The notes: generated by a model from the letters alone, not told the origin. A DNA stretch of 64,000 nucleotides from Verrucomicrobiia bacterium (GCA_014239365.1 JAAZZB010000006.1:75189-139188); one strand, 5' to 3'; positions 1-43,768 are shown, counted from the first letter of the stretch. Translations and numbers: made by a program.

Positions 1-46
1 CTTTAAAAAAACCGCGCCTCACCGGTGCGAGTGAAGCGAATTATTA

Positions 47-1486
47 TTAACTCCCCCACCCTTCCGCCAAACGCACGAGGGTGCGGACGGCGATGCCGGT
101 TGCGCCTTTGCCGGAATTAGGTTGGGCTTTGTCAAACCACGCAGTGCCGGCGATGTCGAGGTGCGCCCACGGAGTGCCTTCCACGAATTGCTCCAAAAAT
201 TTTGCGGCGGTGATGGTGCCGGCTTTGCGATCGGAACCGGCATTGCGCAGGTCGCTCATATCGCCGCGCATGGGCTCGAGATAATCGGCGTCCATCGGCA
301 GCGGCCAAAAGCGTTCGCCGCATTCGCGTCCGCGCAATGCGATGCCGTCGCCGAGTGCTTTGTGATTGCCGAGCAACGCCACGCGAACGCTGCCAAGCGC
401 GACGCTCACTGCGCCGGTGAGCGTGGCGGCGTTGATGATGTGCGTTGCGCCGAGGCGATTGGCGTAAGTGAGCGCATCGGCGAGCACGAGGCGGCCTTCG
501 GCGTCGGTGTTGATGACTTCGATGGTTTTGCCATTCATCGCGGTGATAATATCGCCCGGGCGCGTGGCGGTTCCGCTGGGCATATTTTCCGCCATCGCGA
601 GCAAACAAGTGACGCGCACACGCGGCTGCAAACGGCCGATGGCGGTGATCGCGCCGATCATCGTGGCCGCGCCGCCCATATCGTACTTCATTTTTTCCAT
701 CGAATTGGCGGGCTTCAGCGACAGACCGCCGGTATCAAAAGTAATCCCTTTGCCGACCAGAAAAAGATGGTCATCATTAATTGGATCCTCGGGATTCCAA
801 CTGAGCCGAACCATCCGCGGTGGGCGCACGGAGCCTTGGCCGACGGCGAGGAGCGCGCCTGCACCGAGTTCGCGCAAGTCGTTTTCGTCGAGCACTTCCA
901 CTTCTAATCCGGCGGCTTCACCTTCGCGTGCGGCGCGCGTTGCAAATTCTTCGGGGCCCAAATCGTTGCCGGGAATTTCCACCAACTCGCGCGCGAGGTT
1001 CACGCATTCGGCGGTGATGCGTCCGGCATCGGCAATCGACTGATCGCCGGTGGTCAGCAAAATGACTTCTTCGACCGGCCACGGTTTTTGTTCTTTATAA
1101 CCGCTGGGGCGATGTTCACCAAAGCCCGCGCCTTCGGCGGCCAATCGCGCGCAAGCATCGGGCGGAAGCAGCAACGCCACCGAGCGACACTTGGCCTTGG
1201 CGGCGGCGCGCACAGCTTGGCCGGCGGCGGCAAACCAATGGCGCGCCATCGGTGCTTCGCCGAGGCCGATGAGAAACACACGCTTCACGGCAGTATCCGG
1301 CACGCGATGGATGAGCGTGCACGCGCCGGTTTTGCCGGTGAATTCGCCGGTCTCGATGAGTTCGCCGGGCAAGCCGCCGAGGCGCGCATCGAGCGCGGCA
1401 TCCACCGCGGCGCCTTTGGCCAGCGGCACGGCTAGCGCGTCGACATTGAGTTCTTCCCAGTTTCCAGAATGAAGGGTGATGTTCAT
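47..1486 (-). CDS. pepA: Leucyl aminopeptidase (M17)
   Basis: VGKGITFDTGG, MKYDMGG, NTDAEGRL and WAHLDIAG motifs; start trimmed to MNITLH at 1486. Confidence 0.95.
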   Translation of the reverse strand: MNITLHSGNWEELNVDALAVPLAKGAAVDAALDARLGGLPGELIETGEFTGKTGACTLIHRVPDTAVKRVFLIGLGEAPMARHWFAAAGQAVRAAAKAKCRSVALLLPPDACARLAAEGAGFGEHRPSGYKEQKPWPVEEVILLTTGDQSIADAGRITAECVNLARELVEIPGNDLGPEEFATRAAREGEAAGLEVEVLDENDLRELGAGALLAVGQGSVRPPRMVRLSWNPEDPINDDHLFLVGKGITFDTGGLSLKPANSMEKMKYDMGGAATMIGAITAIGRLQPRVRVTCLLAMAENMPSGTATRPGDIITAMNGKTIEVINTDAEGRLVLADALTYANRLGATHIINAATLTGAVSVALGSVRVALLGNHKALGDGIALRGRECGERFWPLPMDADYLEPMRGDMSDLRNAGSDRKAGTITAAKFLEQFVEGTPWAHLDIAGTAWFDKAQPNSGKGATGIAVRTLVRLAEGWGS

Positions 1487-1502: not shown

Positions 1503-2168
1503 TTAAGTTTTATCCGGCCCCGGCTCGATTGTCGCAATGGCGTGCAACAAATCGGTGGCGGCTTGGTGATATAATTTTTTGAGCTGTTCTTTGTCTTTGG
1601 TTTCGTTTGCCTTGGCCCGAAGGTCGCGGAAGTCGAGCGGTTCGCCAAACTTTATTTCCACCCGATAAGGACGCGGAAACCAATGATGCCGGTTGAAGGC
1701 TTCGTACGAGCCGAATAATTTGACGGGAACCACGGGCGCATCGCTCTTGAGAATGATGAGGCCCACGCCGGGCTGCGGGGCTTGGATTTGGCCGGTGTGC
1801 GAGCGGGTGCCTTCGGGATACATCATCACCGCATCCCCGGCGCGCAGGCGGGTGAAGAAGGTTTTCAAGCCGCGGCCACTGCCGGATTGGTCCACGGGAA
1901 TGACGCCCCAACTGTGCAGCAACGTCCCGACCAATGGAACTTTGTAAGCACTGGCGCGCGCGAGGGCGATGACCAATCGCTGCACGGAACAGACCATATA
2001 AAATGGATCGAGATAACTGACGTGATTGGAGGCAAGAATCACGCCGCCGGTTTGCGGCACGCGATCGTTGTGCAATACGCGGCGGCGAATCCAAGTGCGC
2101 GTGAATAGCCCCGAGATGAACCGGGCCAGCCGATACGAAACACCGATGCGCGTGGGGGTTCGTGCCAT
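1503..2168 (-). CDS. PlsC-like lysophospholipid acyltransferase
   Basis: NHVSYLD (HX4D) and YPEGTRS motifs; start MARTPT 2 nt after the SDR stop. Confidence 0.9.
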   Translation of the reverse strand: MARTPTRIGVSYRLARFISGLFTRTWIRRRVLHNDRVPQTGGVILASNHVSYLDPFYMVCSVQRLVIALARASAYKVPLVGTLLHSWGVIPVDQSGSGRGLKTFFTRLRAGDAVMMYPEGTRSHTGQIQAPQPGVGLIILKSDAPVVPVKLFGSYEAFNRHHWFPRPYRVEIKFGEPLDFRDLRAKANETKDKEQLKKLYHQAATDLLHAIATIEPGPDKT

Positions 2169-2170
2169 TG

Positions 2171-2977
2171 CTATTTCCCTTGCCCGCGAAAAATGCGCAG
2201 CACTTTGCGGCGCAACAGCGCGGGCCACAGCGCTTTGAGAATGGGCGCGAGGCGCAGGCGCGGCGGGATGATAAGTTCATGCCGGCGCTCGCGCATCGCG
2301 TCGATGATTTCGCGCGCGCATTGTTCCAGCGTGATGGACTCGTGATTGTGCGAGCGTTTGCTTTCGCCCATCGCCGCGCCATCGCCGGTGCACGCGTTGG
2401 CGCGCATTTGGGTGCCTTGAATCCAATGCGGATGGACGGTCAAAATATCAACGCCGGTTTCCTCCAGCTCGTAGCGCAGCGTATCGCAAAAGCCTTCGAG
2501 CGCGTGTTTGCTGGCAACGTATCCGGAATGCGCGGGCACGGCGATTTTGCCTTGGATGCTGCCGATGGAAACGACGAGCCCGCCGGACTTCTTAAGCGCG
2601 GGCAATGCAAAGTGCAGCGTGTGCACGAGGCCAAGATAGTTCACCTCCATCAAGCGGCGAAACAAACTGAGGTCAGTCACTTCCTCGAACTTGGCCCACA
2701 TACTGAGGCCGGCGTTTGAGATGAGAAAATCAATGCCGCCAAAGCGCTCGGTGGTTTTGGCGATGAGGCGTTCGCAATCTTCGGGCTGCGTGACATCGCC
2801 GGTGACGGCCATCGCTTCGCCGCCCGCCGCTTCGCATTCGGCCACGGCTTCGGCAAGGGCCTCGGCGTTGCGGGCGAATAGCACAATGCGACAACGCCGT
2901 GCGGCGAGATCGCGCACGAGTTGGCGGCCCAAGCCGGATGAGGCGCCGGTGATGATGACAACTTTTTTGGCAAACAT
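2171..2977 (-). CDS. SDR oxidoreductase, DHRS7B/PexRAP-like (putative acyl/alkyl-DHAP reductase)
   Basis: TGASSGLG, SNAG and YVASK motifs; GSIQGK..ASKHA..F.D.LR.E and ANACTGDG resemble DHRS7B as recalled. Confidence 0.85.
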   Translation of the reverse strand: MFAKKVVIITGASSGLGRQLVRDLAARRCRIVLFARNAEALAEAVAECEAAGGEAMAVTGDVTQPEDCERLIAKTTERFGGIDFLISNAGLSMWAKFEEVTDLSLFRRLMEVNYLGLVHTLHFALPALKKSGGLVVSIGSIQGKIAVPAHSGYVASKHALEGFCDTLRYELEETGVDILTVHPHWIQGTQMRANACTGDGAAMGESKRSHNHESITLEQCAREIIDAMRERRHELIIPPRLRLAPILKALWPALLRRKVLRIFRGQGK

Positions 2978-4722
2978 TAGTCCGCCTTGTTGAACGACGC
3001 AATGGCCTCATCGGTCAAGCCCCATTCGCGGAGGGGATCGGGGCCGGGAATGATTTTGCCGGGGTTCATCACGGCTTTGGGGTCGAGGCCGTCTTTGATG
3101 GCGCGCACGGCTTTGACGCCGGTGGGCGAAAGATCGGCCTCAATCCACGGGAGATGCTCCGTGCCGATGGCGTGATGATGGCTAACGGTGCCGCCGTTTT
3201 GGAGGAAGGAATCTTCGGCGGCTTTTTTGATGTAAAGATATTGATCCATCTCGCGGCCTTCGATTTGGCGGCAGCCGAAGGTGAAGTAGAGGCTCGCGCC
3301 GGTGTGATAGTTGTGGCTGATGTGGCAGCCGACCCACGGATCCGCGCCGGTATCACGAATGGCTTGTTGGATGTTGGCGAGGGTTTTGGTGTAAAGATTG
3401 TGGAGGTTCTCCCACGTGGTGGAAGTTTCGCTGACGTCGCCCATCACGCCGCGGTCCATCAAATAATCGCGGACGTGCGGGAAATCATACTTCGCTTCCT
3501 TAAAGGAATTGCCCGGACCTTCGCCGAGGTTCACGCCGCCGTGCTTTCGGAAAACCCGATTGGATTCCCGCCGCTGCAAATGGAACGTATCGTAATCGCC
3601 TTCGTATGCGGTGGTCATCATACAGCACTTTGTAAAATCAATGCCTTTGATGTTGCGCAAATACCATTTCATTACCGCGCCGATTTTTTGTTTCAACGGC
3701 GACTCCACTTTTTTGAAGGCCGCGCTCAGGGCCGTTTTGCCCGGATCGTTAAGGCGCGTGATGATCGGCATCGCACCGTGCCGCATGCATTCGTGGATGG
3801 CGTGAATGCCACTTTCGAAATCCGGGAACAACCAACCTTCAAACAATTTATATTCCGGCAAGCGATGCACTTGCATCGTCACCTCGGTGATGACGCCGAG
3901 GATGCCTTCGCTGCCCACGCACAAACTCCGCACGTCAATTCCATTGGAAGTATTGGGAACCGTGCGCGTGACGATCGTGCCGCTGGGCGTGACCATCCGC
4001 ACCGCGATGACCATATCCTCAATCTTGCCGTACTTGTCGCTTTGCATTCCCGCCGAACGCGTGGCCACCCAACCGCCGAGCGTGGAGTGCACAAACGAAT
4101 CCGGGAAATGCCCAAGCGTAACGCCTTCCGCCTCAAGCTGTTCCTCCATATGCGGCCCATAAACGCCGGCCTCAATGCGGGCGAGTAGCGATTTTTTATC
4201 AACCGCCAACACGCGATGCATCCGGCACATATCGAGGCTCACAATGAATCGCCCATCGCGATCTTTCGGCTCAATGCAACCGGCGATGTTCGTGCCACCG
4301 CCAAACGGAATGAGCACGGCGTTGTGTTCGTGGGCGGCTTTGACGATGGCCACCACGTCATCTTCGCTCGCGGGATAGACAACGAGATCCGGCGCGAAGT
4401 CCACTTGCCCGCGCCGCAAGCGAAACAAATCGCGAAAGGCTTTTCCGGCGGCATGGATGAGGCGATCTTTTTTGTCGACGGAAAATTGGTCGCCCGAAAG
4501 CGCGTCGCGCAACGCCGCAAGAAAAGGCGCATTCTCTTTCGCCGCGGGCAGATGCACGTCATCAAACTTCACCGGCGGCGTGGGCTCGACTTGTTCCAGC
4601 CCCAACTCGCCGCTGAGGTACGGCCACAGCTTCGGCTTGTCGGCATCGCTGAAGCTCACGTCCTCGTGGCCCCAGCCCCACCATTTCATATGGCGAATTT
4701 TGGGTTCGGAAGAATTAGCCAT
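2977..4722 (-). CDS. Alkyldihydroxyacetonephosphate synthase-like FAD oxidoreductase (AGPS)
   Basis: KWWGWG, PFGGGTN, GHFPDS...STLGGWVATRSAG...YGKIED, GSEGILGVITE and the SHHHAIG triple-His motif. Confidence 0.88.
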   Translation of the reverse strand: MANSSEPKIRHMKWWGWGHEDVSFSDADKPKLWPYLSGELGLEQVEPTPPVKFDDVHLPAAKENAPFLAALRDALSGDQFSVDKKDRLIHAAGKAFRDLFRLRRGQVDFAPDLVVYPASEDDVVAIVKAAHEHNAVLIPFGGGTNIAGCIEPKDRDGRFIVSLDMCRMHRVLAVDKKSLLARIEAGVYGPHMEEQLEAEGVTLGHFPDSFVHSTLGGWVATRSAGMQSDKYGKIEDMVIAVRMVTPSGTIVTRTVPNTSNGIDVRSLCVGSEGILGVITEVTMQVHRLPEYKLFEGWLFPDFESGIHAIHECMRHGAMPIITRLNDPGKTALSAAFKKVESPLKQKIGAVMKWYLRNIKGIDFTKCCMMTTAYEGDYDTFHLQRRESNRVFRKHGGVNLGEGPGNSFKEAKYDFPHVRDYLMDRGVMGDVSETSTTWENLHNLYTKTLANIQQAIRDTGADPWVGCHISHNYHTGASLYFTFGCRQIEGREMDQYLYIKKAAEDSFLQNGGTVSHHHAIGTEHLPWIEADLSPTGVKAVRAIKDGLDPKAVMNPGKIIPGPDPLREWGLTDEAIASFNKAD

Positions 4723-5443
4723 GGAGTTCCTTCAACTTGTGAATGCGTTTTTCCATTTCGCGAGTGATGGCACTATAAATCATTCGACCGCCGCCATGTT
4801 CCTCGCGAAAGCGGTTCGGGTCAATCGCTTCCCCGATATAAACCCGCAATCGCGTGGGCTTGAAAAATTTGCCGCCCTTCGGATACGCGCGGTGCGTGCC
4901 GTTGATATAAACCGGCACGATGGGCAAACTCAATTCAGTGGCAATCATCGCCGGCCCCTTTTTCATCGGAGCCATCTCGCCGGTTTGCGAGCGCGTGCCT
5001 TCAGGATAAATAATGAGGCTGCGATGGCCGTGGGTGGTGAACTCGCGGCACGCCACCATCAGCTTCACGATGCTCTCGCGATTGGCGCCGCGATCGGCGG
5101 GAATGAGATTCATCAGGCGCGAGAGAAAGCTGTTGCGCTTTTCGTTGTCGAAAAAATAATCCTTCGCCGCCACCATTCCGTATTGTTCGAAATCCTCGCC
5201 GCCGGCGTACATCAACGCGGCGCTGTCCATATGGCTGCAGTGATTGCTGCAAAACATAAACGGCGCGGACGGCAGATTTTCGCGGCCCACCACCTTGAGT
5301 GGGCACCACACATTAAAAAGCACGCGGCAAAACAGCTCGAAAAATTTGTGCCACATCGCCGCCTTGCCGCGCGGCGATTTGCGCAGATAGCCGTACTCCG
5401 GCTCGAGTTCCGCCTCTTTCAGTAATTCCTGAAAGCTCGACAC
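4715..5443 (-). CDS. PlsC-family acyltransferase (candidate DHAP acyltransferase)
   Basis: NHCSHMD (HX4D) and IYPEGTRS motifs; GTG start at 5443 with GGAGG Shine-Dalgarno upstream; overlaps the AGPS start by 8 nt. Confidence 0.88.
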   Translation of the reverse strand: MSSFQELLKEAELEPEYGYLRKSPRGKAAMWHKFFELFCRVLFNVWCPLKVVGRENLPSAPFMFCSNHCSHMDSAALMYAGGEDFEQYGMVAAKDYFFDNEKRNSFLSRLMNLIPADRGANRESIVKLMVACREFTTHGHRSLIIYPEGTRSQTGEMAPMKKGPAMIATELSLPIVPVYINGTHRAYPKGGKFFKPTRLRVYIGEAIDPNRFREEHGGGRMIYSAITREMEKRIHKLKELHG

Positions 5444-5445
5444 GC

Positions 5446-6597
5446 TTACCTCCCGAATTTCGCGTGGGCCTCGGCGAACTCGTTGCTCACGATGGCCCCC
5501 GCCAGTGAAATTTCCAGCGCCAATGCTGACGCACAAATGATCTCCGCCAGTTTGCGCGATGAATGTTCGCCCCCGGCGCAGCCCAATAATTCCAAGTTCG
5601 CCCGTTGCGCGTGCAGCCGCGTGGCCCCGCCCACCGTGCCCACCGTCACGCTCGGCATACTCAGCGTGGCATATAAATCGTCCCCGCGTTTTTCGTACGT
5701 CGCAATGCCGATGGCGTTCTCCGCGACGCACGCGACATCCTGCCCCAACGCGAGATAAAGCGCCGCCAACGCGTTGGCGGTGTGGAGGTTCATCCCCAGC
5801 ATCCCGGCCATTTGCGAGCCGAGATGTTTATCGGTAAGCGCTTCGATGAGTTGATCGGCCGTGACGCGCAGTAATTTTTTTAGGATGCGATTGGGAATTT
5901 GGAAACTGGCGATGACGTGATGGCCGCGCCCTTTGATGAGGCTGCGATGCGCGGGGTTTTTGTCCGCATTAAAATTGCTTTCCAGCAAATATCGCAACGG
6001 CGTTTCGCCGGAAAGATTTTCGACAATGTAACGGCACGCGGCATCGGTGCTCAACGTCACCATATTTTGTCCGGCGGCCTCGGCGGTGTGATAAATGAAA
6101 TCGAGGATGACGCGGTTGTGGATGATGTGTTTATCGATCCGCAACAGTTTGCCGTGGCGCGTGGTGCTTTCGGCCGCTTTTTTGATGTCGTCATAACGAG
6201 CGTCGATGATTTTGAGAAAAGCCATCGCCTCTTCGATTTCATCAAACCGAAACACCGGCGCGCGCGAAAGTTCCTGCTTCACGTGGCGCGTCTTGATGCC
6301 GCCCGCGCGATGGGTCAGATAAAATCCGCGCGTCATCGAAAGGCTCAGCGTGCCCTCCACCGTGCACAGCGGCACATAAAAATCTCCCTGCGCGTAAGTG
6401 CCGTCGATTTTCAACGGGCCCGAAATGCTCAACGGCAGACCAACAAAGCCCACGTGATTTTCGATGAGCCCCTTGAGATTTTCCGGATCATCCAGCGCAA
6501 ACGCCGGCATCGCGTGCCCCGTCTGCTCCTCCAGCCATTGCTGGCGCGCCTCGGTATCCGCTTGGGCGTACCCGCGCGGTGGTGTCAATTTATTCAT
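5446..6597 (-). CDS. HMG-CoA reductase family protein (class I-like, catalytic domain only)
   Basis: ENHVG, CTVEG (catalytic Glu), EAAGQNMV, ADKN, LGQDVA (catalytic Asp), GTVGGAT and the C-terminal AHAK His. Confidence 0.9.
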   Translation of the reverse strand: MNKLTPPRGYAQADTEARQQWLEEQTGHAMPAFALDDPENLKGLIENHVGFVGLPLSISGPLKIDGTYAQGDFYVPLCTVEGTLSLSMTRGFYLTHRAGGIKTRHVKQELSRAPVFRFDEIEEAMAFLKIIDARYDDIKKAAESTTRHGKLLRIDKHIIHNRVILDFIYHTAEAAGQNMVTLSTDAACRYIVENLSGETPLRYLLESNFNADKNPAHRSLIKGRGHHVIASFQIPNRILKKLLRVTADQLIEALTDKHLGSQMAGMLGMNLHTANALAALYLALGQDVACVAENAIGIATYEKRGDDLYATLSMPSVTVGTVGGATRLHAQRANLELLGCAGGEHSSRKLAEIICASALALEISLAGAIVSNEFAEAHAKFGR

Positions 6598-6694: not shown

Positions 6695-9007
6695 TTACTT
6701 GCCCATCTTGCCCGCATCACGCCCCAGCCACGCCGGCAACAAACCCAGCGCCGCCACCAACGCCCCCGCCAAACCCGCCGCCAACAGCAACCCAAAATGC
6801 ACCACCGGCGGAAAGGACGCGAATGCGAACACACACAAAATCCCTCCCAGGATCACCGTGGTGCAAACGATTGGCCGGCACTTCACCTCCAACGTTTCCT
6901 TCAACGCCGCATTGCCGTCCAGCCCGCGCGCGCGCGCCATCCGCCAGTGCGTGATGAAATGAATCGTGTCGTCCACCGCAATCCCAAAGGCCACCGCCGC
7001 CACCATGATGGTGATCGCGTTCAAGGGCACGCCGGCGAAGCCCTGCAGCGCCACCACCAACCCCACCGGCAGCACGTTGATGAACAGCGCAATGAGCGCC
7101 AGCGACAGCGACCGCCAAATCACCACCAACGCCAACCCCACCAACGCGCACGTGATGCCCGCCGTACTCGTTTGGCTGTCCACGATCACGCGATCCGCCT
7201 CGAGGACTTCATGGATGCCTTGCGTGGCCGAGATCCCAATCGTCGCATTCGGTCGTGCATCGGCCAGTTCCCGCACCAACGAATGAATCATCGTGATATA
7301 TTCCTCCGCCGCCATAAAGCGCGTGCGGACGTACAAATACGTTTTACGTTTTCCTTCATCAAACAGGATGTCCATCAACGGCAGCATTTCCTCGAACGCT
7401 TCCGAGCTAAGGATGCTCAACATATTCGGCTTCAACAATTTCTCGGCCATCACGCGCACCAGCGTTGACTCATCATCCACCGCCGCGTGATAGATCTGAT
7501 CCAACACCCACGGGTAAACATAAGCCACCTCCACTTCCTCGTGCGCGATGGCAATTGCCCGCGCGCGGTTCAAAAACTCCACAAACTTTTTGTCACTCAC
7601 GCCGTCCGCCCGGCCGGAATCAATCTCGATGCGCAGCACATTGATGCCGCCACATTCGCGATCGCACAGTTCCACCACTTGCCGCGTGGGACTTGCCGGC
7701 TCCAGAAATTCCGTGGCGCGAATATCCGTGCGCACCTTTGACCAACCCCAAACCATCGCGCCCACCAGCAGCAACGTGCCCACCGCAATCGCCGGACGCC
7801 ACCGGCGCACCCGGTCCAGCCACCGCCCGTAATCCAGCGGTAACGTCTTTTCTCGAACCGCCGCGGACACATTGCCCGCGTGCAGAAAACGCAATAGCAT
7901 CAACGCCGGACCGAAGGTGATGGAGAACATCAAAATCATTCCCGCGCCGCCGATGAACCCGAATTCACGAATCGACGGCACCTCGCTGGCCATCAACGAA
8001 AATAATCCCGCCGCCGTGGTCAGTCCCGCGAAGGCGCTGCTGCGGAATACTGTTTCGAACACCGCCCGCACCGCGTCCTCCGCCGACTGCCCCGCGTTGC
8101 GGGCGCGTTGATACGCCGTGCCCACGTGAATGAGCATCGCCAAATGCAGGCCCGTGAGCAGCGGAAAAAGCATCACCGTAAACACGTTTGCCTTGTCGCT
8201 AATCAGCGTGATCAATCCCGGCAACGCCGCCAAGCCCAGCACTTGTGCGAGCAACACCGCCAGCACCATCCACAACGAACACCGAAACGTCAGCAACAAC
8301 ACCCCCAACAAAACCGCCGAAGCGATGGGCAGGAACAGCCGCATATCCCTCCACAGCGTCAGCCGAATTTCCTCCTCCGCGTGCGGGGCGGACAACACTT
8401 GAAATCGCTGCCCCATTCCCGCAAACGGCGCCAGCGTGGCATTGATGGACTCCACGTATTTTTGGTTGGACTCCGAAGTGCTGACGTCCGCCTCGCACAT
8501 CAGCCACATCATCGCGCGGCGGTTGTCCGGCGTGACCAAAAAATTTTGCAGCAACGGCAGCCGATCCTTGCAATACCCGCGCGCCGTTTCCAACTCCGCC
8601 TCGCTCAAGCCCGCGATCAATGGCTGCATTTTCAACGGCGGCACCGACGTCAACGCCACCTCCGGACGAAACGGTGGATACACCAAACTCAAGGCATGAT
8701 AAACATGCGGATTGGCCATGCACGCCGTGCTGATCTCCCGCAGGCGCACGATCGATTCCGGCGCGAACACATCGTCGAACTCCACCACCACCAGCGCAAA
8801 CACGAGGTTGTCCTCCACCTGCGCCATCCGGCTGTTGACCGACTTGTACCCCTCCAAGCTGCGTTGATCGCCCGAAAGCAGCACCTCCAAATCCGCCCCC
8901 AACTTGAAATGATCCATCCGCCCAATCAGCCCCATGCAAACCAGCGCCACCAGCACGGCCCACAACCGAAACGGATCAAGATTGAATTTTCCCTTCGGAA
9001 CCTCCAC
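6695..9007 (-). CDS. MMPL/RND family transporter
   Basis: Two halves of 1 TM + soluble loop + 5 TM; GLTTAAGLFSL and GIAVDDTIHF motifs. Confidence 0.88.
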   Translation of the reverse strand: MEVPKGKFNLDPFRLWAVLVALVCMGLIGRMDHFKLGADLEVLLSGDQRSLEGYKSVNSRMAQVEDNLVFALVVVEFDDVFAPESIVRLREISTACMANPHVYHALSLVYPPFRPEVALTSVPPLKMQPLIAGLSEAELETARGYCKDRLPLLQNFLVTPDNRRAMMWLMCEADVSTSESNQKYVESINATLAPFAGMGQRFQVLSAPHAEEEIRLTLWRDMRLFLPIASAVLLGVLLLTFRCSLWMVLAVLLAQVLGLAALPGLITLISDKANVFTVMLFPLLTGLHLAMLIHVGTAYQRARNAGQSAEDAVRAVFETVFRSSAFAGLTTAAGLFSLMASEVPSIREFGFIGGAGMILMFSITFGPALMLLRFLHAGNVSAAVREKTLPLDYGRWLDRVRRWRPAIAVGTLLLVGAMVWGWSKVRTDIRATEFLEPASPTRQVVELCDRECGGINVLRIEIDSGRADGVSDKKFVEFLNRARAIAIAHEEVEVAYVYPWVLDQIYHAAVDDESTLVRVMAEKLLKPNMLSILSSEAFEEMLPLMDILFDEGKRKTYLYVRTRFMAAEEYITMIHSLVRELADARPNATIGISATQGIHEVLEADRVIVDSQTSTAGITCALVGLALVVIWRSLSLALIALFINVLPVGLVVALQGFAGVPLNAITIMVAAVAFGIAVDDTIHFITHWRMARARGLDGNAALKETLEVKCRPIVCTTVILGGILCVFAFASFPPVVHFGLLLAAGLAGALVAALGLLPAWLGRDAGKMGK

Positions 9008-9158: not shown

Positions 9159-10940
9159 TCAAGCCGCCAAGTGAGCGCGGGAGATTTGTTGGGCTTGGGC
9201 GATTTGCTCGGGGGTCATGCAGCGGGCGGTGTGGCGTTTGTTTTTCTCGGCGATTTCCAGGCCGTGCGATGAGGCGCGGTTGAACCACACGTACGCGAGC
9301 ACGTAATCCTCCGGCACGCCGCGTCCGCGCAAATAGCAATCGGCCAAAATCAATTGGGCCTCGGGCACTTCCTGCGCGGCGGCGAGCTGGCACCACTTGG
9401 CCGCTTCGCCGGCATCCGCGTCCACGCCTTCGCCGTGATGATAGAGCGTCGCCAACACGTGCTGCGCCACGGCGTGCCCTTGCTTGGCGGCTTGGCGATA
9501 CCACGTGACGGCTTGATCCAAATTAGCCTCCGTGCCGCGACCGAGGTGCAGCATCACGGCGAGATTATATTGCGCCCGCGCCAAACCTTGATCCGCCGCC
9601 AACTCGTACCAGCGCAAAGCCGAAGTAAAATTCTGTTCCGTGCCGCGTCCCTGTTCGTGGAACGCGCCCAGATTGCACTGGGCGCTGGCGATGCTTTGTT
9701 CGGCCGCGAGCTTGTAATACTTGAGCGCTTTGACGTCATCGGCGGGCACGCCACGTCCGCGTGCGTGCATTGCGCCGAGGTTAAACTGCGCCGCCGCGTG
9801 GCCGGCATCGGCGGCGAGCGTGTACCAATCGGCGGCTTCCGTGAGATTTTCTGGAACGCCATCGCCGCGCTCGAGGCTGACCGCCAGCCGATACTGCGCT
9901 TCATTCACGCCGCCTTCGGCGGCTTTGCGCAGCCACTTCACAGCGGCCGCCGCATCGCGCGGCAGCGCCACGCCGTCATCCAGCGCGCGCCCGAGTAGCC
10001 ATTGCGCCTCGGTGTGATCGGCGGTGGCGGCTTGTTCCAGCCATTGCGCGGCTTCGGGCGAATGCGCTTCGAGTAAGTTACGGCCAAGATTGAATTGCGC
10101 GGGCAAGCAATTTTGTTCCGCCGCGCGGCGATACCATTCCATGGCTTCGCCGGCATCCGCATCCACGCCGATGCCTTCGGCAAGGCAACGACCCAAATTA
10201 TTTTGTGCAGCGGCGTGGCCGACTTCGGCGGCGGCGCGATACCAACGTGTGGTTTCCGTTTTGTCGGCATCCTCTTCAGCCGCCAACAAATCGGCCAAGT
10301 GCGCCTGGGCGGCGGCGTGATTTTTCTCGGCGGCTTTGGTGAGCCATTCCTTGGCGACTTCCAAATCTTTTTCCGCGCCACGCCCTTGCGCGCAGCGAAG
10401 GCCGAGGTTGAATTGCGCGGCGGTGTTGCCTTGCTCGGCGGCTTTGCGGAACCAACCGACGGCTTGGGCTTCATCGGCGTCCACGCCGGTGCCTTCGGAA
10501 AAGCATACGCCCAAATTATTTTGTGCCAACGCGAAGCCTTGCTCGGCGGCTTTCGTTAGCAACGCCGCGCCTTCGGATTCGTTGGCGGACACGCCGTTGC
10601 CGCGCACGAGCCGCCAGCCGAGGATGGCTTGGGCGCGCGCGTAGCCGAGCTCGGCGGCTTTACGATACCACTTGAGCGCGGCTTTGAGATCGGGCGCGCC
10701 GAGCGCATCGCTGGTGTACAGAAGGGCGAGATTATTCATCGCGGGCGGGAAGTCGCGCTTGGCGGCTTTGCGATACCATTTCTCGGCCTCCTTGAGATCG
10801 CCCTCGCCGCCGTCGCCGTCACCATTGGCAAGCTTCACGGCGAGCGTAAATTGCGCTTTGAGCACGCCATCTTTGGCTTGCGAGCGCAATTCTTTCAGTT
10901 CCGCTTTGGCGGATTTTTCTGCCTGTTTGTCTTCGGCCAT
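9159..10940 (-). CDS. Sel1-like repeat protein (about 15 repeats)
   Basis: Recurrent AQxNLG...G.GV..D...A..WY..AA.QG 36-aa units; start trimmed to MAEDKQ. Confidence 0.93.
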   Translation of the reverse strand: MAEDKQAEKSAKAELKELRSQAKDGVLKAQFTLAVKLANGDGDGGEGDLKEAEKWYRKAAKRDFPPAMNNLALLYTSDALGAPDLKAALKWYRKAAELGYARAQAILGWRLVRGNGVSANESEGAALLTKAAEQGFALAQNNLGVCFSEGTGVDADEAQAVGWFRKAAEQGNTAAQFNLGLRCAQGRGAEKDLEVAKEWLTKAAEKNHAAAQAHLADLLAAEEDADKTETTRWYRAAAEVGHAAAQNNLGRCLAEGIGVDADAGEAMEWYRRAAEQNCLPAQFNLGRNLLEAHSPEAAQWLEQAATADHTEAQWLLGRALDDGVALPRDAAAAVKWLRKAAEGGVNEAQYRLAVSLERGDGVPENLTEAADWYTLAADAGHAAAQFNLGAMHARGRGVPADDVKALKYYKLAAEQSIASAQCNLGAFHEQGRGTEQNFTSALRWYELAADQGLARAQYNLAVMLHLGRGTEANLDQAVTWYRQAAKQGHAVAQHVLATLYHHGEGVDADAGEAAKWCQLAAAQEVPEAQLILADCYLRGRGVPEDYVLAYVWFNRASSHGLEIAEKNKRHTARCMTPEQIAQAQQISRAHLAA

Positions 10941-11105
10941 CAGTGCAGCTGGTATTTTTCGCCGCGGCAACAAATGGATTGCACGCGGAAAACGGTCGTT
11001 TTTACCCGTTTTTCACGCGAAAAGCCAGTCATTCTCCTTGGCGAATGTATTTGGAAAAATAGAGCAACACTTGTGCCAAAGTCTGTTTTTTCCTGAAAAA
11101 CCCAC

Positions 11106-15800: not shown

Positions 15801-16496
15801 TTACTTCAACGCCGCTTTCACCTCTGCTTTGCGCATAAAGATCAGAAGGATAATAGGATAAACAATGCGCAGTAATTTCCCGATCATTTGACCGATCTTT
15901 CCCGGCGTTAACTCGGTACTGCCTGAAACGTTGCCAATTGCATCAGGCATCAAAGCAAATTCCATTATTGATTCAGCGATACTGACCAATAAATATCCGA
16001 TGGCATAAATATCCGATGGCATAAACCATCGCCAACGTGCGACCCCATTTTTTAGCCATCAACAGCCCAACGCCGCTGATTAATTGGATCAATAACAGGA
16101 TGATTGCCACCCCGCTGAGAACCACACCGAATATCAACATTGGCTTCGCTTCACTGCCGATTTTCCCAGCTTCAACCGCCGCCAAAAGAGCGATCAACGC
16201 GGCTGTCCCGATGCCCTGACAAATCCCGCATAAGATGCCAAACAGGATGTTCAATATACCAAACACTTTCGGTGTTTGAGTGGGCGTGGAGGCAGGTGCG
16301 GTGGCCACCGGCGGCGGTGCGGCGCTAAGGGCGGCGGCGAATTCCGGGAAGGTGGCGACGGCGGCCCATTCGGTTGTGCCTTCTTTGTGGATCATCGTCG
16401 CGGCGTTGGCTTGGCCGGATTGAATCCATTGAATCACCGCCGCTTCATCCACGGGGCCGTACTGTTGCTGGTCGCTGCCAAGAATGGTGTAAACAT
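15801..16496 (-). pseudogene. GYF_2 (DUF4339) domain membrane protein, frameshifted
   Basis: [14 protein letters not shown]...[31 protein letters not shown]_2 motif; 16-bp tandem duplication at 15989-16020 shifts the frame; ATG at 16496 is 2 nt out of frame. Confidence 0.75.
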
Positions 16497-16602
16497 ACGG
16501 TTGGGGCCGATTGCGGGCTTGCGTGCCGCCTCGAACCGCACCACACTGCACGCACACCCCGCCCGGCATCAAGTTATTTGCCGTGCAATTTTGAAAATAA
16601 AA

Positions 16603-18150
16603 ATGAAAACCCTCACACGCATTTTTCAAATCACCGCCCTCGTGTGGTTCACCTCCGCCCTCTCCGCCGCGCCCGCCGGCAAACGGCCGAACATTTTGTT
16701 TGTCTTTACCGACGACCACGCGGCGCACGCCATTAGCGCTTATGGTTCAAAGATAAACACCACGCCTCACATGGATCGCCTTGCCAAAGAAGGTATGCTT
16801 TTTGAAAAATGTTACGTGAGCAATTCCATTTGCGGGCCAAGCCGCGCCGTGATTCTCACCGGTAAATACAATCACCTCAACGGTTACTTCCGCAACGGCC
16901 TCACGTTCGATGGCTCGCAAATGACGTTTCCTAAACTGCTGGGCAAGGCCGGTTATGCGACGGCGATGATCGGCAAATGGCATTTGAAAAGCACGCCCAC
17001 GGGGTTTGATTACTTCGACGTGCTCGTCGGCCAAGGGCCGTATTATAATCCGCCAATGAAAACGACGAACGCGGAAGGCAAAGTCGTCACCGTCAAGCAC
17101 ACCGGTTACACCACCGACATTATCACCGACAAAGCGCTGGCGTGGCTCAAGAATGATCGCGATCAATCCAAACCATTTATGCTGATGTACCAACACAAAG
17201 CCCCGCATCGCAACTGGCAGCCGGGGCCGAAACATCTCACGCTGTTTGATGATGTGGAGATTCCCGAGCCGGAAACTTTGTGGGACAATTACGAAGGCCG
17301 CACTTCAGCCGCCCACAAACAAGCAATGACCATCGCGCGCCATCTCAGCCCCAACGACCTCAAGCTCAACGCCGGCCCCGGCAACCTCACACCCGCGCAA
17401 AAGAAAAATTGGGACGCCGCTTACGGCCCCAAAAACGAAGCCTTCCGCAAAGCCAAACTCCAAGGCAAAGCGTTGGTGAAATGGAAATACCAGCGCTACA
17501 TCAAAGACTACCTCCGCTGCGTGCAAAGCGTGGACGACAACCTCGGCCGCGTGCTCGATTATCTCGACGCCAGCGGCCTCGCCAAAAACACCATCGTCAT
17601 TTACAGCAGCGACCAAGGCTGGTACCTCGGCGATCACGGCTGGTACGACAAACGCTGGATGTACGAGGAAAGCCTCGTGATGCCGCTGCTCGTCCGCTGG
17701 CCCGGCGTCGTCAAGCCCGGCAGCCGCAACACCGACATCGTTTCCAATCTGGATTTTGCCGAAACCTTTTTAGACATCGCCGGCGCAAAAATCCCCGCAG
17801 CAATGCAAGGCCACAGCATCGTACCGCTCCTCGAAGGCCGCACGCCCAAAAATTGGCGCACGCATTTTTATTATCACTACTACGAATTCCCCGGCGCCCA
17901 CAGCGTCGCCCGCCACTACGGCGTCACCAACGGCCGCCACAAACTCATTTACTTTTACCAATACGACGAGTGGGAACTCTTCGACCTCGGCAAAGACCCC
18001 AACGAACTCACCAGCGTCTACGGCAACAGCGACTACAAAAAAGTGCAGTCCGATCTCCTCGCCCAACTCAAACGCCTCCGCGCCCAATACAAAGTCCCCG
18101 AACAAGACCCCGTCCGCCCCCCGCGCAAGCCCCGCCCAAAGAAAAAGTAA
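16603..18150 (+). CDS. Sulfatase (Cys-type, S1)
   Basis: [26 protein letters not shown] motifs; signal peptide. Confidence 0.95.
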
Positions 18151-18623: not shown

Positions 18624-21600
18624 TCACTCCCCGCGCAGGTACGCCAGCAAATCGGCCATCGCCGCTGGCGGCAGCGCGGCTTCGAGGCCGGGGGGCATTA
18701 GGGAAAGGCCGGTGCTTTGGAGGGTTTTGATGTTGGCGCGGAGGATGATTTGTTCGGCGCCAATGGCGGTGCGCAGCGTGAGGCTGGTGGGGGTCTCAGC
18801 GGTGATGACGCCGGTGTGCGCGGTGGCGTTGCGGGTGATGATGACGTAGCCGACGTACTTGTCTTCCACGGCGCGATTGGGATCGAGGATGGCGGTGAGC
18901 CAATCGGCGGTGGGCTTGGCGGCGAAGAGGGCGGGGTCCGGACCGACAGGATTGCCTTGATTATTGAACCGATGGCAAACGGCGCAGTTGGCTTTGAACA
19001 GGAACGCGCCGTCTTCGGCGTTGCCTTTGAGTTTCCCAATACCGGCATAGCGGGCGATGACTTTGGCGCGGTTGGGATCGACTTTGCCGAAGAGTTGGAT
19101 GGCGCGTGCGCGGAGGGTGGCGTCGGTGTGTTTGGTAAATTTCTGGCGATGCGCGGGGCTGATTTGGTTGGCGGCCAAATCGCCTTTCTCGAGCGCAGCG
19201 AGAAGGGCTTGCGTCCACGCGGGGCGGGTGAGGAGGGTTTCAATCGCTTCGGCGCGGATGGCGGGGCTGAAGGTTTGCCAACTACCGAGTAATGCGCTGA
19301 CCAAGTGCGGCTGATGAATTTTTCGCAACGTGGCGAAGGCGGTTTTTTGAAGCGCGGGCGGATGCTCGGCGGCGAGTAATTTGACGAGGGTTTTTTTGTC
19401 GGCATCAATCGGTTCGAGACCACGCCCGAGAAGCGGAATGGCAGCTTGGCGTTCGGCGACGGTGGCGTTGGGATTGGCGGCGGTGGCGCGGGCGTGTTTG
19501 AACAGGGCGGCGGTTTTGGTAAGGGCGGCTTTGAGTTTGGGCGGAGCGGTCTTTTGGAAATCGATGAGAGTTTGGCCGCGGGCGTGGAGGGCGTCGAGCA
19601 GTCCGGCCAAGATGGTGAGGTCGGCGGGAGTAAGATCATTGAGCACGAGCGCGAGGGCGTCGAGTTGCTCGCCGGTGGTGGCGAGTTTGAGGAGGTGATT
19701 GGAAAGCGCGGCGGGCGGGCGGCCTTTCTGCGAAAAGATTTGCTTGAGCATCGCGGCGGCGTGCGGGGCGGCGGAGCTTTTCACCGCCAACTGAATGTCA
19801 GCATTTTTGGGATGCTGCACGGCAAGGTAAACAAGGCCTTCGGTGACAAGCTGGCCCTTGCCTTGGCCGAGGGTGAAGGCGAGCTGGCGGAGGACGCGGG
19901 GGGATTTGTCGGTGAGGCATTGGCGGGCGAGCGCTTCGTTGCCGCCCTCGCATAAACGCACGGCGTGTTCGCGGACGGCCGCGTGGTCATCGCGCAGAGC
20001 ACGGGCAAGGGTTTCTTTGTTGAGCGCGTTCAAGCCCGCGAGGGTGTGCAGGGCGTGGATGCGTGCTTGGGGCGAAACGATTCCGCGCAACATATTGGCG
20101 GCGATGGAGCCGAGGCGCTGATGGGTTTTCGGGTCGTTGCGCGTGATGAGCAATCGCTGGGCGGTGTCGCGTTGCCAACCGTTGGGATGGTCGAGTGCCC
20201 AGACGAGTTGTCGCGTGGGGAGTTTATCGAGGCGCGGGATTTTTCGCAGCTTTGCGCCTTTGGGAACCACGCGCCAAATGCGTCCTTTGTCGTGGCCGGC
20301 GCGGAGGTCCACGCGGCTTTGCATCGTGGCGGGAATCCACTCGGGATGCTCGATGATGAGGCGGTACATATCGGCGATGTACAACGCGCCGTCGGGGCCG
20401 GTTTTGAGTTGCACGGGGCGAAACCAGTTGTCGGTGCTGGCGAGGAATTCGCTTTTCTCTTCGCCCGCCGCGCGGTGGCTCTTGAAGCTCACGCCGTCGG
20501 GCACGAGCACTTCGCGATGGACGAGATTGTGCACCGGTTCGCTGATGAACACGCTGCGCGCAAACTCTTTGCCGAACAAGCCGCCGCGATAAGGCGTGGC
20601 GCTGTTGGCGCTGGTCACGTGTCCGTAGCTTTGCGGTTGATTCGGGCGCACCATCTTCGCGCTGATGGGGAAACAGCGGTTGCTGGAAAACGTATTGCGA
20701 CGCGTGGCCCCCACGGCGAGCTGCGGATTGCGCGCGAGGTAACGCAACGGCACGTGGTAATGCCACAGCCAGTTTGGGTTGTTGTTGCCGAACCAATTCC
20801 CCCAGTCATCGCGCCAACGGCCGAACTGTGTTTGGCCCGCGACGGCTTCGAATTCGCCAGTCATCTTAAAACGAAAATCGCGTCCGCTTATATTAGTGCG
20901 CGCGCCCGTGGCTTTGCTGGTGATCGTGCCGCCGCTGTCGCCGTTGGCGGCGTAAATCCAGTTGTCCAGCCCGAGCGCAAAGCCATTCATCCGATGCTGC
21001 TGATTGCCCTCGCGGAAGCCGGTGAAAAGCACGCGGCGCACATCGGCGCGGCCATCGCCGGTGGTGTCCTCGGCGTAGAGGATGTCCGGCGCGGCACTGA
21101 TGAGCACGCCCTTGCCCCACGCGAGCACGCCATTGGGAAAATTCAGGCCCTCGAGAAACACCGTCGATTTTTCATAACGCCCGTCGCCGTCCGCATCCTC
21201 CAGCCAACGCACCACGCCGCCGGGTTTGCCATCGATGCCGAGCGGATAATCGCCCATCTCGGCCACCCAAAGTTTGCCGTCCGCGCCCCAGTCGAACGCC
21301 ACCGGATCGCGCAATTGCGGCTCGCTCGCGACGAGCTGCACCGCGAAGCCCTCGCGCACTTGAAAGCATTGGCGGCTTTCCTCCGGCTCCTTCGCCTTCG
21401 GCCCGCCGAAATCCAGCAACTCCTTAAACGACCGCCGATCCACCACATCCGGCAAATGCGCCGTGTCCTCGTTTTGAACCCACAAGTGCCCGCTATGAAA
21501 CCACGCGCCATTATTCGGATGCTTGCCCCCGCGCGAAATCATCGGGATCGCATCCTTGTCCCCGCGCTTCCCCTCGCGCGCCATCGTCCATCCCGGCTTC

Positions 21601-38762: not shown

Positions 38763-40232
38763 CTAATCGATCGGCTTGAAGGGGAAATCCGCTGACGGAC
38801 TATGTTCCGATTGCATCAGCCTCCGAATTTGGTCCACTACCTTGGGGTGCTGCGCGGCGACATCTTTGGATTCGGCGATGTCGGTTTTCAAATTGAAGAG
38901 CTGAATCTTGAGCGGGGTCTTATTATTTTTACGGAGCATATTTTGGCGCACGCCTTTCCAATGGCCCATCCACACCGCTTGTTGGCCGCCGTAGCCGGTG
39001 AATTCGCGATACAAAAACGCGCGCGGGTCTTGTTTTTTGCCAAGCAACGTGGGCGCAATGCTGATGCCGTCGATATCGATGGATGCCGGAGCGGATGCCC
39101 CGATCAAATCCAGCACAGTGGGCAGCCAATCCTCCAGGCCGGTGCGATAATGAGACGTGCTGCCGGCTTTGATTTTGCCGGGCCATTTGACGATGAGCGG
39201 CACGCGGATGCCGCCTTCATACAGCGAACCTTTCAAGCCGCGCAAGGGCTTCACGCTTTCAAAAAAATCGTAATCCACTTCGAGTTTCAAATGTGTGGTG
39301 CCGTTGTCGGAGGTGAAGACGACGATGGTATTTTTTTCGAGGCCGAGTTCTTTAACGAGGTTGAGTACGTTGCCAATGTAGCGATCCATGCGGGTGATCA
39401 TCGCGGCATACGCGGCGCGCGGCGTGAAGTGAGGCGTGTAGCCGTAGCCTTTGGCGCGGGTGAACGGCGGGTCATTCCATTTCTGCGCGAGGTAGGGCTT
39501 AAGTTCCTCATCGGGCACATGCAGCGCCACGTGCGGGATGACGGTGGGGTAATAGAGAAAAAACGGCCGGTCCTTGTTTTTTTTCACAAACGCCAAGGCA
39601 CGATCGTTGATGCGATCGGGCGCGTAGTCTTGTCCTTTAAAAATATCGTAGCTGCGCGGATCGCCGGCATCCGCACCTTGCGGCAACGAAGCATGACCGG
39701 GCACGGGTGGCTTATTGTTGAGCGCGTACTTTTCTTTGTTGCTCCAAAGATAGGGCGGATAATAGCTGTGCGCGACACGCTGGCAGTTGTAGCCAAAAAA
39801 ACGGTTAAAACCCTGATGCATAGGATCGCCCGTGGAGCCCGGCCCGCCCAGGCCCCATTTGCCAAACGCGCCGGTGGTGTAGCCCTGCTTTTGCAACAGC
39901 TCGGCCATCGTCACCTCGGCCAACGGGATCGGGTGTTGGCCTTCGGGCTTAAGTTCCTTGTTGTTGCGCACAAACGAATGCCCCGGATGCTTGCCGGTCA
40001 TCAACACACAGCGTGACGGCGCGCACACGGCGTTGCCGGAATAGTTCGCTGTGAAGCGCATCCCCTCACGCGCAAGTCGATCAAGATGCGGCGTCTTAAT
40101 TTTCTTTTGCCCGTACGACCCCAGCTCGGAATAGCCAAGGTCATCGGCCATGATAAAAATAATATTCGGTTTCTGCTCGGCGAAAAGTGCCGGAGCAATG
40201 GAAATGCAAATGAGGGTGAGAATTCGTTTCAT
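38763..40232 (-). CDS. Arylsulfatase
   Basis: KPNIIFIMADDLG, CAPSR, GKWGLG, TSDNG, LYEGGIRVP. Confidence 0.95.
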   Translation of the reverse strand: MKRILTLICISIAPALFAEQKPNIIFIMADDLGYSELGSYGQKKIKTPHLDRLAREGMRFTANYSGNAVCAPSRCVLMTGKHPGHSFVRNNKELKPEGQHPIPLAEVTMAELLQKQGYTTGAFGKWGLGGPGSTGDPMHQGFNRFFGYNCQRVAHSYYPPYLWSNKEKYALNNKPPVPGHASLPQGADAGDPRSYDIFKGQDYAPDRINDRALAFVKKNKDRPFFLYYPTVIPHVALHVPDEELKPYLAQKWNDPPFTRAKGYGYTPHFTPRAAYAAMITRMDRYIGNVLNLVKELGLEKNTIVVFTSDNGTTHLKLEVDYDFFESVKPLRGLKGSLYEGGIRVPLIVKWPGKIKAGSTSHYRTGLEDWLPTVLDLIGASAPASIDIDGISIAPTLLGKKQDPRAFLYREFTGYGGQQAVWMGHWKGVRQNMLRKNNKTPLKIQLFNLKTDIAESKDVAAQHPKVVDQIRRLMQSEHSPSADFPFKPID

Positions 40233-40278
40233 CGTGTGGCAAAAGCATACCGACATTCTCGGCCGAACGCAACACTCA

Positions 40279-40405: not shown

Positions 40406-43768
<3,363 letters not shown>

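Follow-up and report, generated by a model that had tools for sequence, protein, structure and literature searches.

A probable five-gene operon for AGPS-dependent ether-lipid synthesis, with an HMGR-like candidate reductase, in a marine Verrucomicrobiia bacterium

The question raised by this locus is whether a marine bacterium could assemble alkyl ether lipids by the alkyl-dihydroxyacetone phosphate (alkyl-DHAP) route and, if so, which enzyme would supply the fatty alcohol. The locus lies in a 64-kb stretch of a Verrucomicrobiia bacterium (GCA_014239365.1 JAAZZB010000006.1:75189-139188), here called the window, whose own genome (G000) belongs to the marine Verrucomicrobiota and comprises 3.3 Mb in 89 contigs, being 93.6% complete. 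Five tightly packed minus-strand genes were identified at 6597..1503 and encode, in reading order, a protein similar to 3-hydroxy-3-methylglutaryl-CoA (HMG-CoA) reductase (HMGR), an acyltransferase (AT1), an alkyl-DHAP synthase (AGPS), a short-chain dehydrogenase/reductase (SDR) and a second acyltransferase (AT2). Judged from sequence, they quite probably form one operon by which 1-O-alkyl-2-acyl-glycerol-3-phosphate, from which plasmanyl (alkyl-acyl) phospholipids derive, would be made aerobically with the help of AGPS. The system is not wholly new, the pathway being of a known kind; what appears to be new is the direct coupling of an HMGR-like gene to AGPS. The gene order given in a preliminary description of this DNA, with 2-nt gaps or overlaps of 1 and 8 nt, was confirmed from the gene coordinates (Table 1), and the SHHH and HX4D motifs were found where that description had placed them.

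The AGPS gene and its neighbours

The third gene encodes a flavin adenine dinucleotide (FAD) protein which, by its residues and matches, is a true alkyl-DHAP synthase (EC 2.5.1.26), predicted to put a fatty alcohol in place of the acyl group in acyl-DHAP. It comprises the Pfam domains FAD_binding_4 (PF01565, 124.6 bits) and FAD-oxidase_C (PF02913, 119.3 bits). Among solved structures it matches the Dictyostelium enzyme ADPS (2uuu; E 5.5e-133, 447.9 bits) and guinea-pig AGPS (4bby; E 3.1e-90, 306.7 bits), the best structure outside this type being a D-lactate dehydrogenase (8jdb; E 2e-25, 92.7 bits), and on the NCBIfam glcD model it scores 160.8 bits, far under the cut-off of 567.9. The earlier proposal that the protein is AGPS-like, and not a GlcD or D-lactate dehydrogenase, is upheld by this grouping with solved AGPS, the other two types being reached at E 2e-25 or weaker. 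The SHHH motif occupies residues 514-517. Guinea-pig R419, Y578 and H615-617, which are active-site residues (the histidines forming a loop), align with R323, Y479 and H515-517, and R323, S469, Y479 and H515-H517 are invariant in 27/27 bacterial homologues from seven phyla. In the accessible text of PMC13012113, AGPS is reported to carry no phylogenetic signal.

The search for AGPS relatives confirmed 581 stretches, and the locus counts given here refer to the best 80 of the 581. An AT1-type gene adjoins AGPS in 68 of the 80 loci, including 37 of 48 from Acidobacteriota, which lack the reductase; AT2 is present in 9, belonging only to Verrucomicrobiota, and the HMGR-like gene adjoins AGPS in 29. 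By origin, these 29 comprise 18 from Verrucomicrobiota, three from Gammaproteobacteria, two each from Gemmatimonadota and Planctomycetota, one each from Ignavibacteriota and Calditrichota, one unclassified metagenome-assembled genome (MAG) and one partial Verrucomicrobiota contig. The HMGR-like gene is lacking from all 46 AGPS loci of Acidobacteriota that have at least 2 kb of upstream sequence, and is also absent at the sole Chloroflexota locus among the 80; in L004 and L025, neither from Acidobacteriota, the upstream sequence is too short to judge. In one Acidobacteriota locus (L030, 5740-6897) the neighbour of AGPS is a protein with PP-binding and thioesterase domains on the opposite strand. 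Where at least 850 bp lie downstream of AGPS, the SDR gene follows it in Verrucomicrobiota (16/16), Gemmatimonadota (2/2), Ignavibacteriota (2/2), Calditrichota (1/1), the unclassified genome (1/1) and Planctomycetota (1/2), and is missing after AGPS in the gammaproteobacterial (0/3) and Acidobacteriota (0/45) loci. On these neighbour counts AT1 and AGPS are the conserved core. The reductase-AT1-AGPS core is shared by seven phyla, so the synteny is indeed conserved, and the idea that the operon is special to a bacterium of the Planctomycetes-Verrucomicrobia-Chlamydiae (PVC) group had to be given up.

Both acyltransferases match PF01553 (Acyltransferase), AT1 with 78.3 bits and AT2 with 82.1 bits, and contain EGTR as well as HX4D, located at residues 68-73 and 49-54, respectively; H68 and D73 of AT1 are invariant in 27/27 homologues. 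The closest solved structure to AT1 is Thermotoga PlsC (5kym, E 1.6e-16), which AT2 matches at E 2.7e-13, and AT1 also matches a PlsC-type NCBIfam model below its cut-off. The acyltransferase tree separates AT2 from AT1, on a branch of 11 rows with support 90. Three more PF01553 genes are found elsewhere in G000, and AT1 and AT2 are therefore extra copies. One other acyltransferase match of this genome lies in a reading frame of ~715-735 aa and could be PlsB-like; PlsY (TIGR00023) had no match in G000 at its 93.6% completeness. From its adjacency to AGPS, AT1 is proposed as the DHAP acyltransferase making 1-acyl-DHAP, and AT2 is proposed as the sn-2 acyltransferase acting on 1-alkyl-glycerol-3-phosphate.

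The SDR is of the classical type (adh_short, 171.2 bits) and carries TGASSGLG, the Gly-rich cofactor motif, at residue 10 and YVASK, the catalytic YxxxK, at residue 153. It exceeds the cut-off of the generic SDR model NF004825 (297.7 bits, cut-off 215), its best solved matches, a clavaldehyde dehydrogenase and 11-beta-HSD1, are uninformative, and the protein cluster search returned only generic 'short chain dehydrogenase' clusters. The proposed function is that of an NADPH-dependent 1-alkyl-DHAP reductase giving 1-alkyl-glycerol-3-phosphate. All substrates and products of the pathway are inferred here, and gene position together with the chemistry that AGPS requires is the basis for the part given to the SDR and for how the work is shared between AT1 and AT2.

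The HMGR-like protein as candidate source of fatty alcohol

The HMG-CoA_red domain (PF00368, 344.9 bits) spans residues 16-383 of the 383 in the HMGR-like protein, which matches the archaeal class-I HMGR 6hr7 with 279.3 bits. Its close homologues, with 58-94% identity, are all named HMG-CoA reductase in public records. The protein does not fit a canonical HMG-CoA reductase (EC 1.1.1.34): on TIGR00533, the equivalog model of the NADPH-dependent enzyme, it scores 303.6 bits, below the cut-off of 441.8, and it has Glu and Phe at positions 684 and 862 (human numbering). The gene is the sole PF00368 match in G000. Within this genome HMG-CoA synthase was not found and mevalonate kinase had no match above cut-off, again at 93.6% completeness, and Dxr is present (461.7 bits). 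No convincing fatty acyl-CoA reductase of the FAR type was identified in G000 either, the best match to PF07993 (NAD_binding_4) being of 37.6 bits, in a family that matches all 14 control genomes.

A fatty acyl-CoA reductase related to class-I HMGR, FcrA, was reported in ISME J in 2025 (PMC11948995). According to the accessible text of that paper, the pocket changes in FcrA are the replacement of Ser684 (by Glu in Natronomonas), the exchange of Leu862 for a bulky residue and the loss of the HMG-binding Lys, printed there as 'Lys795' and taken here as Lys735; the same text states that the assayed FcrA performs a full four-electron reduction and describes a Lad domain for certain FcrA, not for all. 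In the alignment with human HMGR, E46, K213, D287 and H378 of the HMGR-like protein correspond to the catalytic Glu559, Lys691, Asp767 and His866, and these four are kept in 27/27 AGPS-linked homologues. Ser684 is replaced by E206 and Leu862 by F374, each change being present in 27/27, and Lys692 is replaced by Asn in 27/27 AGPS-linked proteins versus 5/147 representative relatives. The Lys735 position is paired with K257 by HMMER pairwise alignment and with D256 by MAFFT; in the AGPS-linked clade column 256 contains D in 19, Q in 5 and K, L and N in one each, and column 257 contains K in 14, C in 7, M in 3, L in 2 and A in one. The protein is proposed to be an FcrA-type fatty acyl-thioester reductase making fatty alcohol, because of its FcrA-type residues, its orphan status beside Dxr and the replacement of its gene by a FAR gene in another Verrucomicrobiota genome, G045, described below.

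At E ≤ 0.001 the full-library search with the HMGR-like protein yielded 2976 relatives, and the analysis used the best 150. Three of these and two of 39 open reading frames from the loci were dropped for covering fewer than 300 query positions, and 147 representatives were kept. Lys691 and Asp767 are present in all 147 (best of 2976), the Ser684 column holds Ser in 6 and the Leu862 column Leu in 5. The FastTree tree comprises 185 rows, and its root was set on the 7 showing Ser-Lys-Leu, the canonical pattern; these 7 split off at support 98, and 28 AGPS-linked rows and 6 uncharacterised representatives form one clade at support 100. Both results were repeated by IQ-TREE (AGPS-linked clade 100, canonical HMGR split 98) with 76 rows, 13 near-duplicate AGPS-linked rows and 96 randomly unsampled other rows being left out. 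The AGPS-linked HMGR-like proteins thus constitute a separate subfamily, strongly supported in both trees and found beside AGPS in seven phyla.

Relatives in the wider FcrA-like radiation are fused to AMP-binding and PP-binding domains, fusions that fit an action of the radiation on fatty acyl thioesters. FcrA-like domains were identified in the fusion proteins P0126, P0128, P0129, P0133, P0134, P0140, P0147 and P0187, the partners being AMP-binding plus PP-binding domains, APH/EcKL-type kinase domains, DUF3419 and an N-terminal PilZ-like domain. A DUF3419 gene adjoins the FcrA-like gene in locus L094. In locus L096 (G174:C38, 2471-6015), which has no AGPS, an FcrA-like gene is flanked by genes for an Acyl_transf_1 protein and a UbiA-family prenyltransferase and may belong to a different alcohol-using lipid pathway.

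The distribution of both genes was surveyed in 301 Verrucomicrobiota and 201 Gemmatimonadota genomes. PF00368 matches are present in 61 of the 301, and AGPS at E ≤ 1e-60 in just two, G000 and G045, for which reason co-occurrence in Verrucomicrobiota is uninformative. The G045 locus (L098, G045:C19, 3045-7722) comprises a classical FAR gene (PF07993, 204.6 bits), a PlsC-type acyltransferase gene, a HAD gene and then AGPS, so that FAR is in the position held by the HMGR-like gene in the window's operon. Four fetched lower-scoring PF00368 matches from Verrucomicrobiota show the canonical Ser-Lys-Leu. In Gemmatimonadota, the close HMGR-like type (60-61% identity) was identified in G301, the sample centre, picked for bearing the operon, and in G413, in both cases within 700 bp of a close AGPS. 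Other FcrA-like types (35-42% identity) are found in 22 of the 201 genomes, none with AGPS, and three genomes have a distant AGPS (34-36% identity) and no FcrA-like match. Two distant AGPS genes from this phylum (34% identity; G393:C6:108127-109746 and G374:C7:19342-20949) contain one in-frame TGA each. Among five operon-bearing genomes of other phyla, four have a single PF00368 gene and the Legionellales genome has two.

Proposed pathway and alternative explanations

The HMGR-like protein, as a member of the FcrA radiation, would reduce a long-chain acyl thioester by four electrons to the fatty alcohol, and AT1 would acylate DHAP to 1-acyl-DHAP. AGPS would then exchange the acyl group for the alcohol, forming the ether bond; the SDR would reduce the keto group of 1-alkyl-DHAP, AT2 would acylate sn-2, and head groups would be added by ordinary phospholipid enzymes. 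PEDS1/CarF (PF10520) was not found in G000, in a search that matched no control genome. With no vinyl-ether desaturase identified, alkyl ethers would be the more probable product, and not plasmalogens. The suggestion that the locus holds a self-contained alkyl-DHAP ether-lipid pathway gains support by inference from the AGPS identity, the synteny and the FcrA-type residues, and the suggestion that gene order follows reaction order holds provided that the HMGR-like protein is the alcohol-forming reductase, as its FcrA-type residues, its orphan status and the FAR of G045 would have it.

Three other explanations concern single parts of this scheme. The SDR might reduce a fatty aldehyde released by the HMGR-like enzyme, or some other lipid intermediate, and leave the keto group to a housekeeping enzyme; we regard this as unlikely, though still worth weighing. 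It would fit the fact that only a generic model (NF004825) and equally generic structures and clusters match the protein, and that the gene is missing from 3/3 gammaproteobacterial and 1/2 Planctomycetota loci with the reductase-AT1-AGPS core. The SDR gene, however, overlaps AGPS by 1 nt and keeps its position in five named phyla and one unclassified MAG, in the assayed FcrA the four-electron reduction goes to completion (PMC11948995, accessible text), and the myxobacterial AGPS operon also contains a NAD-dependent reductase-type gene (PMC9131029, accessible text). The end product may be questioned too. The same enzymes could make neutral or signalling ether lipids, such as alkyl-diacylglycerols like TG-1 or free alkylglycerols, and not bulk membrane phospholipids, AT2 or another acyltransferase finishing the storage or signal lipid and an MMPL transporter exporting it. 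Precursors of this kind do give rise to the alkyl-diacylglycerol TG-1 in Myxococcus xanthus (PMC9131029, accessible text), an MMPL/RND gene lies 97 nt upstream and is kept in 9 Verrucomicrobiota loci, and FcrA was discovered in the neutral-lipid context of wax esters (PMC11948995, accessible text). We nevertheless consider this outcome distinctly improbable, given that no operon gene dephosphorylates alkyl-acyl-glycerol-3-phosphate and that AT1 and AT2 are both PlsC-like. WS/DGAT (PF03007) had no match in G000, in a search that matched no control genome either.

Were the HMGR-like protein a real reductase of HMG-CoA or another short acyl-CoA, it would be unrelated to alcohol supply, and AGPS would receive its alcohol from elsewhere or from the environment. 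The absence of matches for HMG-CoA synthase and mevalonate kinase in G000, where Dxr is present, speaks against such a function, as do the score under the TIGR00533 cut-off and three substitutions: Ser684→Glu and Leu862→Phe, neither of which varies within the clade, and Lys692→Asn, seen in 27/27. The AGPS-linked clade is moreover monophyletic and apart from the Ser-Lys-Leu HMGRs, and a classical FAR holds the equivalent position in G045. What can be said for it is that the catalytic residues and Arg590 are conserved, that K257 may equal the HMG-binding Lys735 in pairwise alignments, that the archaeal enzyme 6hr7 is matched with the score given above and that close homologues are without exception annotated 'hydroxymethylglutaryl-CoA reductase'; taking both sides together, we judge it very improbable.

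Several observations weigh against the five genes being an FcrA-fed ether-lipid operon. At the Acidobacteriota AGPS loci, with the reductase in 0/46, another alcohol source must exist; G045 has AGPS and no PF00368 match; and 13 other genomes among the 301 from Verrucomicrobiota have high-scoring PF00368 genes and no AGPS, so FcrA-like enzymes clearly serve other pathways too. In the 6 of those 13 genomes from which the genes were fetched, all six show Glu684 and Phe862 but Lys692, and branch elsewhere. The third FcrA signature, the loss of Lys735, is ambiguous in the HMGR-like protein, K257 being kept in 14/27, and the protein has neither the N-terminal Lad domain of the assayed enzyme nor an ACP domain. 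The trees hold neither the assayed Pb-FcrA nor the Natronomonas FcrA and have a small outgroup of 7 rows, so membership in FcrA is drawn from residues and from separation from these canonical HMGR rows. The specificity of AT1 for DHAP and the substrate of the SDR are likewise drawn from gene neighbourhood only. Finally, in the accessible text of PMC11868695, no ether lipids were detected in Pontiella (Verrucomicrobia), which has homologues of ElbD, a case indicating that homologues alone do not guarantee the lipid.

Taken more widely, the locus may represent an 'ether-lipid cassette' that moves horizontally and would provide plasmanyl lipids to aerobes of at least seven phyla, including widespread pelagic marine Verrucomicrobiota. 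Its core would be reductase-AT1-AGPS, in many cases joined by the SDR, with the reductase coming from the HMGR-derived Glu684/Asn692/Phe862 subfamily; we offer this tentatively, as a possibility that falls somewhat short of probable. When non-isoprenoid alkyl glycerol ethers are found in sea water and sediments, they are usually ascribed to anaerobes, for example sulfate reducers. The operon would bear on this use as biomarkers and, if the cassette reading is true, its carriers would be a source of monoalkyl glycerol ether biomarkers in the oxic ocean that has been overlooked. Oxygen-compatible ether-lipid synthesis would extend beyond myxobacteria and eukaryotes to common marine Verrucomicrobiota and other phyla; the AGPS pathway would have a second, independent evolutionary solution for its alcohol supply; and an enzyme fold from isoprenoid synthesis would have been taken over for fatty-lipid chemistry and fixed in an operon with AGPS. 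With its 448 bits to the Dictyostelium enzyme, the AGPS would then also be a candidate relative of eukaryotic AGPS, whose origin was left unresolved by a 2026 PNAS study. The compact five-gene cassette opens a candidate bacterial DHAP acyltransferase, a candidate alkyl-DHAP reductase and the substrate range of an AGPS-dedicated FcrA subfamily to testing; in the literature consulted on the myxobacterial pathway, the first two steps are assigned by sequence analysis only.

Flanking features and comparison with known systems

Table 1. Features of the operon region in the window (positions from the first letter of the window)
Feature	Position	Strand	Product and signals	Relation to neighbour	Model score
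HMGR-like gene	6597..5446	-	383 aa, ATG start	2-nt gap to AT1	
AT1, PlsC-type HX4D acyltransferase	5443..4715	-	242 aa, GTG start, GGAGG upstream	8-nt overlap with AGPS	
AGPS	4722..2977	-	581 aa	1-nt overlap (TAATG) with SDR	
SDR, classical	2977..2171	-	268 aa	2-nt gap to AT2	
AT2, second PlsC-type HX4D acyltransferase	2168..1503	-	221 aa		
MMPL/RND transporter	6695..9007	-	770 aa	97 nt upstream of operon, same strand	PF03176, 106 bits
PepA, leucyl aminopeptidase	47..1486	-		16 nt downstream of AT2	NF002073, 485.3 bits (cut-off 432)
Terminator-like hairpin	15..38	-	9-pair stem then TTTTTTT	just past PepA	

The MMPL/RND transporter shows weak similarity to HpnN and HAE3, below both NCBIfam cut-offs, and its gene is found upstream of the operon in 9 of the 80 loci, all from Verrucomicrobiota. 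It is possibly a lipid exporter for the pathway, which might carry the ether lipids as far as the outer membrane, and only doubtfully a part of the operon unit. The pepA gene also lies behind AT2 in related Verrucomicrobiota loci; it is probably co-transcribed with the operon and has no evident pathway role. The hairpin after it is likely the 3' end of the transcription unit. Terminator-like sites in the region (18 against a shuffled mean of 14.4) and promoter-like sites (3 against 3.7) are not above shuffled sequence, and the Rfam search of the window gave no match. Two marine sequencing runs each contain 0.05 of the sampled words, one of them (X1) being probably DNA. Contigs from these runs, with a likeness of mostly 90-95%, cover parts of each of the five genes but no part of the MMPL gene; such contigs cannot show transcription, and no inference on expression or operon limits is drawn from them. 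A contig of 5.3 kb in the same genome (G000:C48; L099, 1-5337) carries the C-terminus of AGPS, SDR, AT2 and PepA at 91-95% amino-acid identity to the operon, which suggests that the MAG includes sequence of a second strain, and not that the genes are truly duplicated.

Elsewhere the window encodes a Sel1-repeat protein of 604 aa, two sulfatases and a pair of giant DUF7133 proteins that contain cytochrome c domains, at 9159-10973 (-), 16276-18150 (+), 18624-23369 (-), 38763-40256 (-) and 40406-43768 (-). Such a set of genes would be expected in a polysaccharide-degrading bacterium.

In the literature, AGPS homologues are reported in 43 of 270 Black Sea Verrucomicrobiota MAGs (PMC11868695, accessible text) and in sponge symbionts (bioRxiv 10.64898/2026.06.23.733905), and distant homologues were noted in 2022 (PMC13159169). 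The pathway had been put forward as not known to have been described. This stands in part: some of its elements are in print (PMC9131029, PMC11868695, PMC11948995), and the direct coupling of an HMGR-like gene was not found in the full texts searched. In these full texts no paper was found on an FcrA-like gene directly coupled to AT1, AGPS and SDR, nor any description of an AGPS-dedicated FcrA subfamily, although supplementary tables may list cases of either.

Bacteria also form ether-linked glycerolipids by routes that bypass both AGPS and DHAP. In myxobacteria the enzyme is ElbD, which combines FadD, ACP, FAR and PlsC domains, and in anaerobes it is Ger or PlsAR, by which ester bonds are converted through reduction under anoxic conditions. 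The likeness to FcrA, as described in the accessible text of PMC11948995, comprises the kept catalytic residues, Ser684→Glu, a bulky replacement of Leu862 and a host without the mevalonate pathway. The HMGR-like protein of the window differs in having no Lad or ACP domain, in belonging to the Lys692→Asn subfamily and in lying directly beside AT1 and AGPS, and it is known from its sequence alone. In that text some FcrA are suggested to feed ether-lipid synthesis, an AGPS gene being located nine genes from Pb-fcrA.

In M. xanthus, too, one operon brings together AGPS, a reductase forming the alcohol, an acyltransferase and a second reductase of the nucleotide-dependent kind. It comprises MXAN_1676 (AGPS), MXAN_1675 (a FAR-like and GNPAT-like fusion) and MXAN_1674 (of the NAD-dependent epimerase/dehydratase type), according to the accessible texts of PMC9131029 and PMC13012113, and deletion of MXAN_1676 lowers ether lipids slightly (PMC9131029, same text). 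The M. xanthus reductase is a FAR domain fused to a GNPAT-like one, whereas the window's operon is without FAR, has the HMGR-like protein instead and keeps its genes separate; it also has a classical SDR where M. xanthus has an extended-type reductase, contains an extra sn-2-type acyltransferase and is found in other phyla. G045, from Verrucomicrobiota, carries the myxobacterial-style cluster (FAR-AT-HAD-AGPS).

The eukaryotic peroxisomal pathway (FAR1, GNPAT, AGPS, PexRAP/DHRS7B and an sn-2 acyltransferase) shares the order of chemical steps with the one proposed here. The statement that the operon mirrors this pathway is correct for AGPS, which is homologous to the eukaryotic enzyme with identical active-site Arg, Tyr and HHH; it does not extend to the reductase, the acyltransferases and probably the SDR, which are analogues and not homologues. 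The alcohol step has a Rossmann-type FAR fold in eukaryotes and an HMGR fold in the operon, and eukaryotic GNPAT is large whereas the operon acyltransferases are small and PlsC-like (221-242 aa). Unlike the eukaryotic pathway, the five pathway genes are here gathered in one operon.

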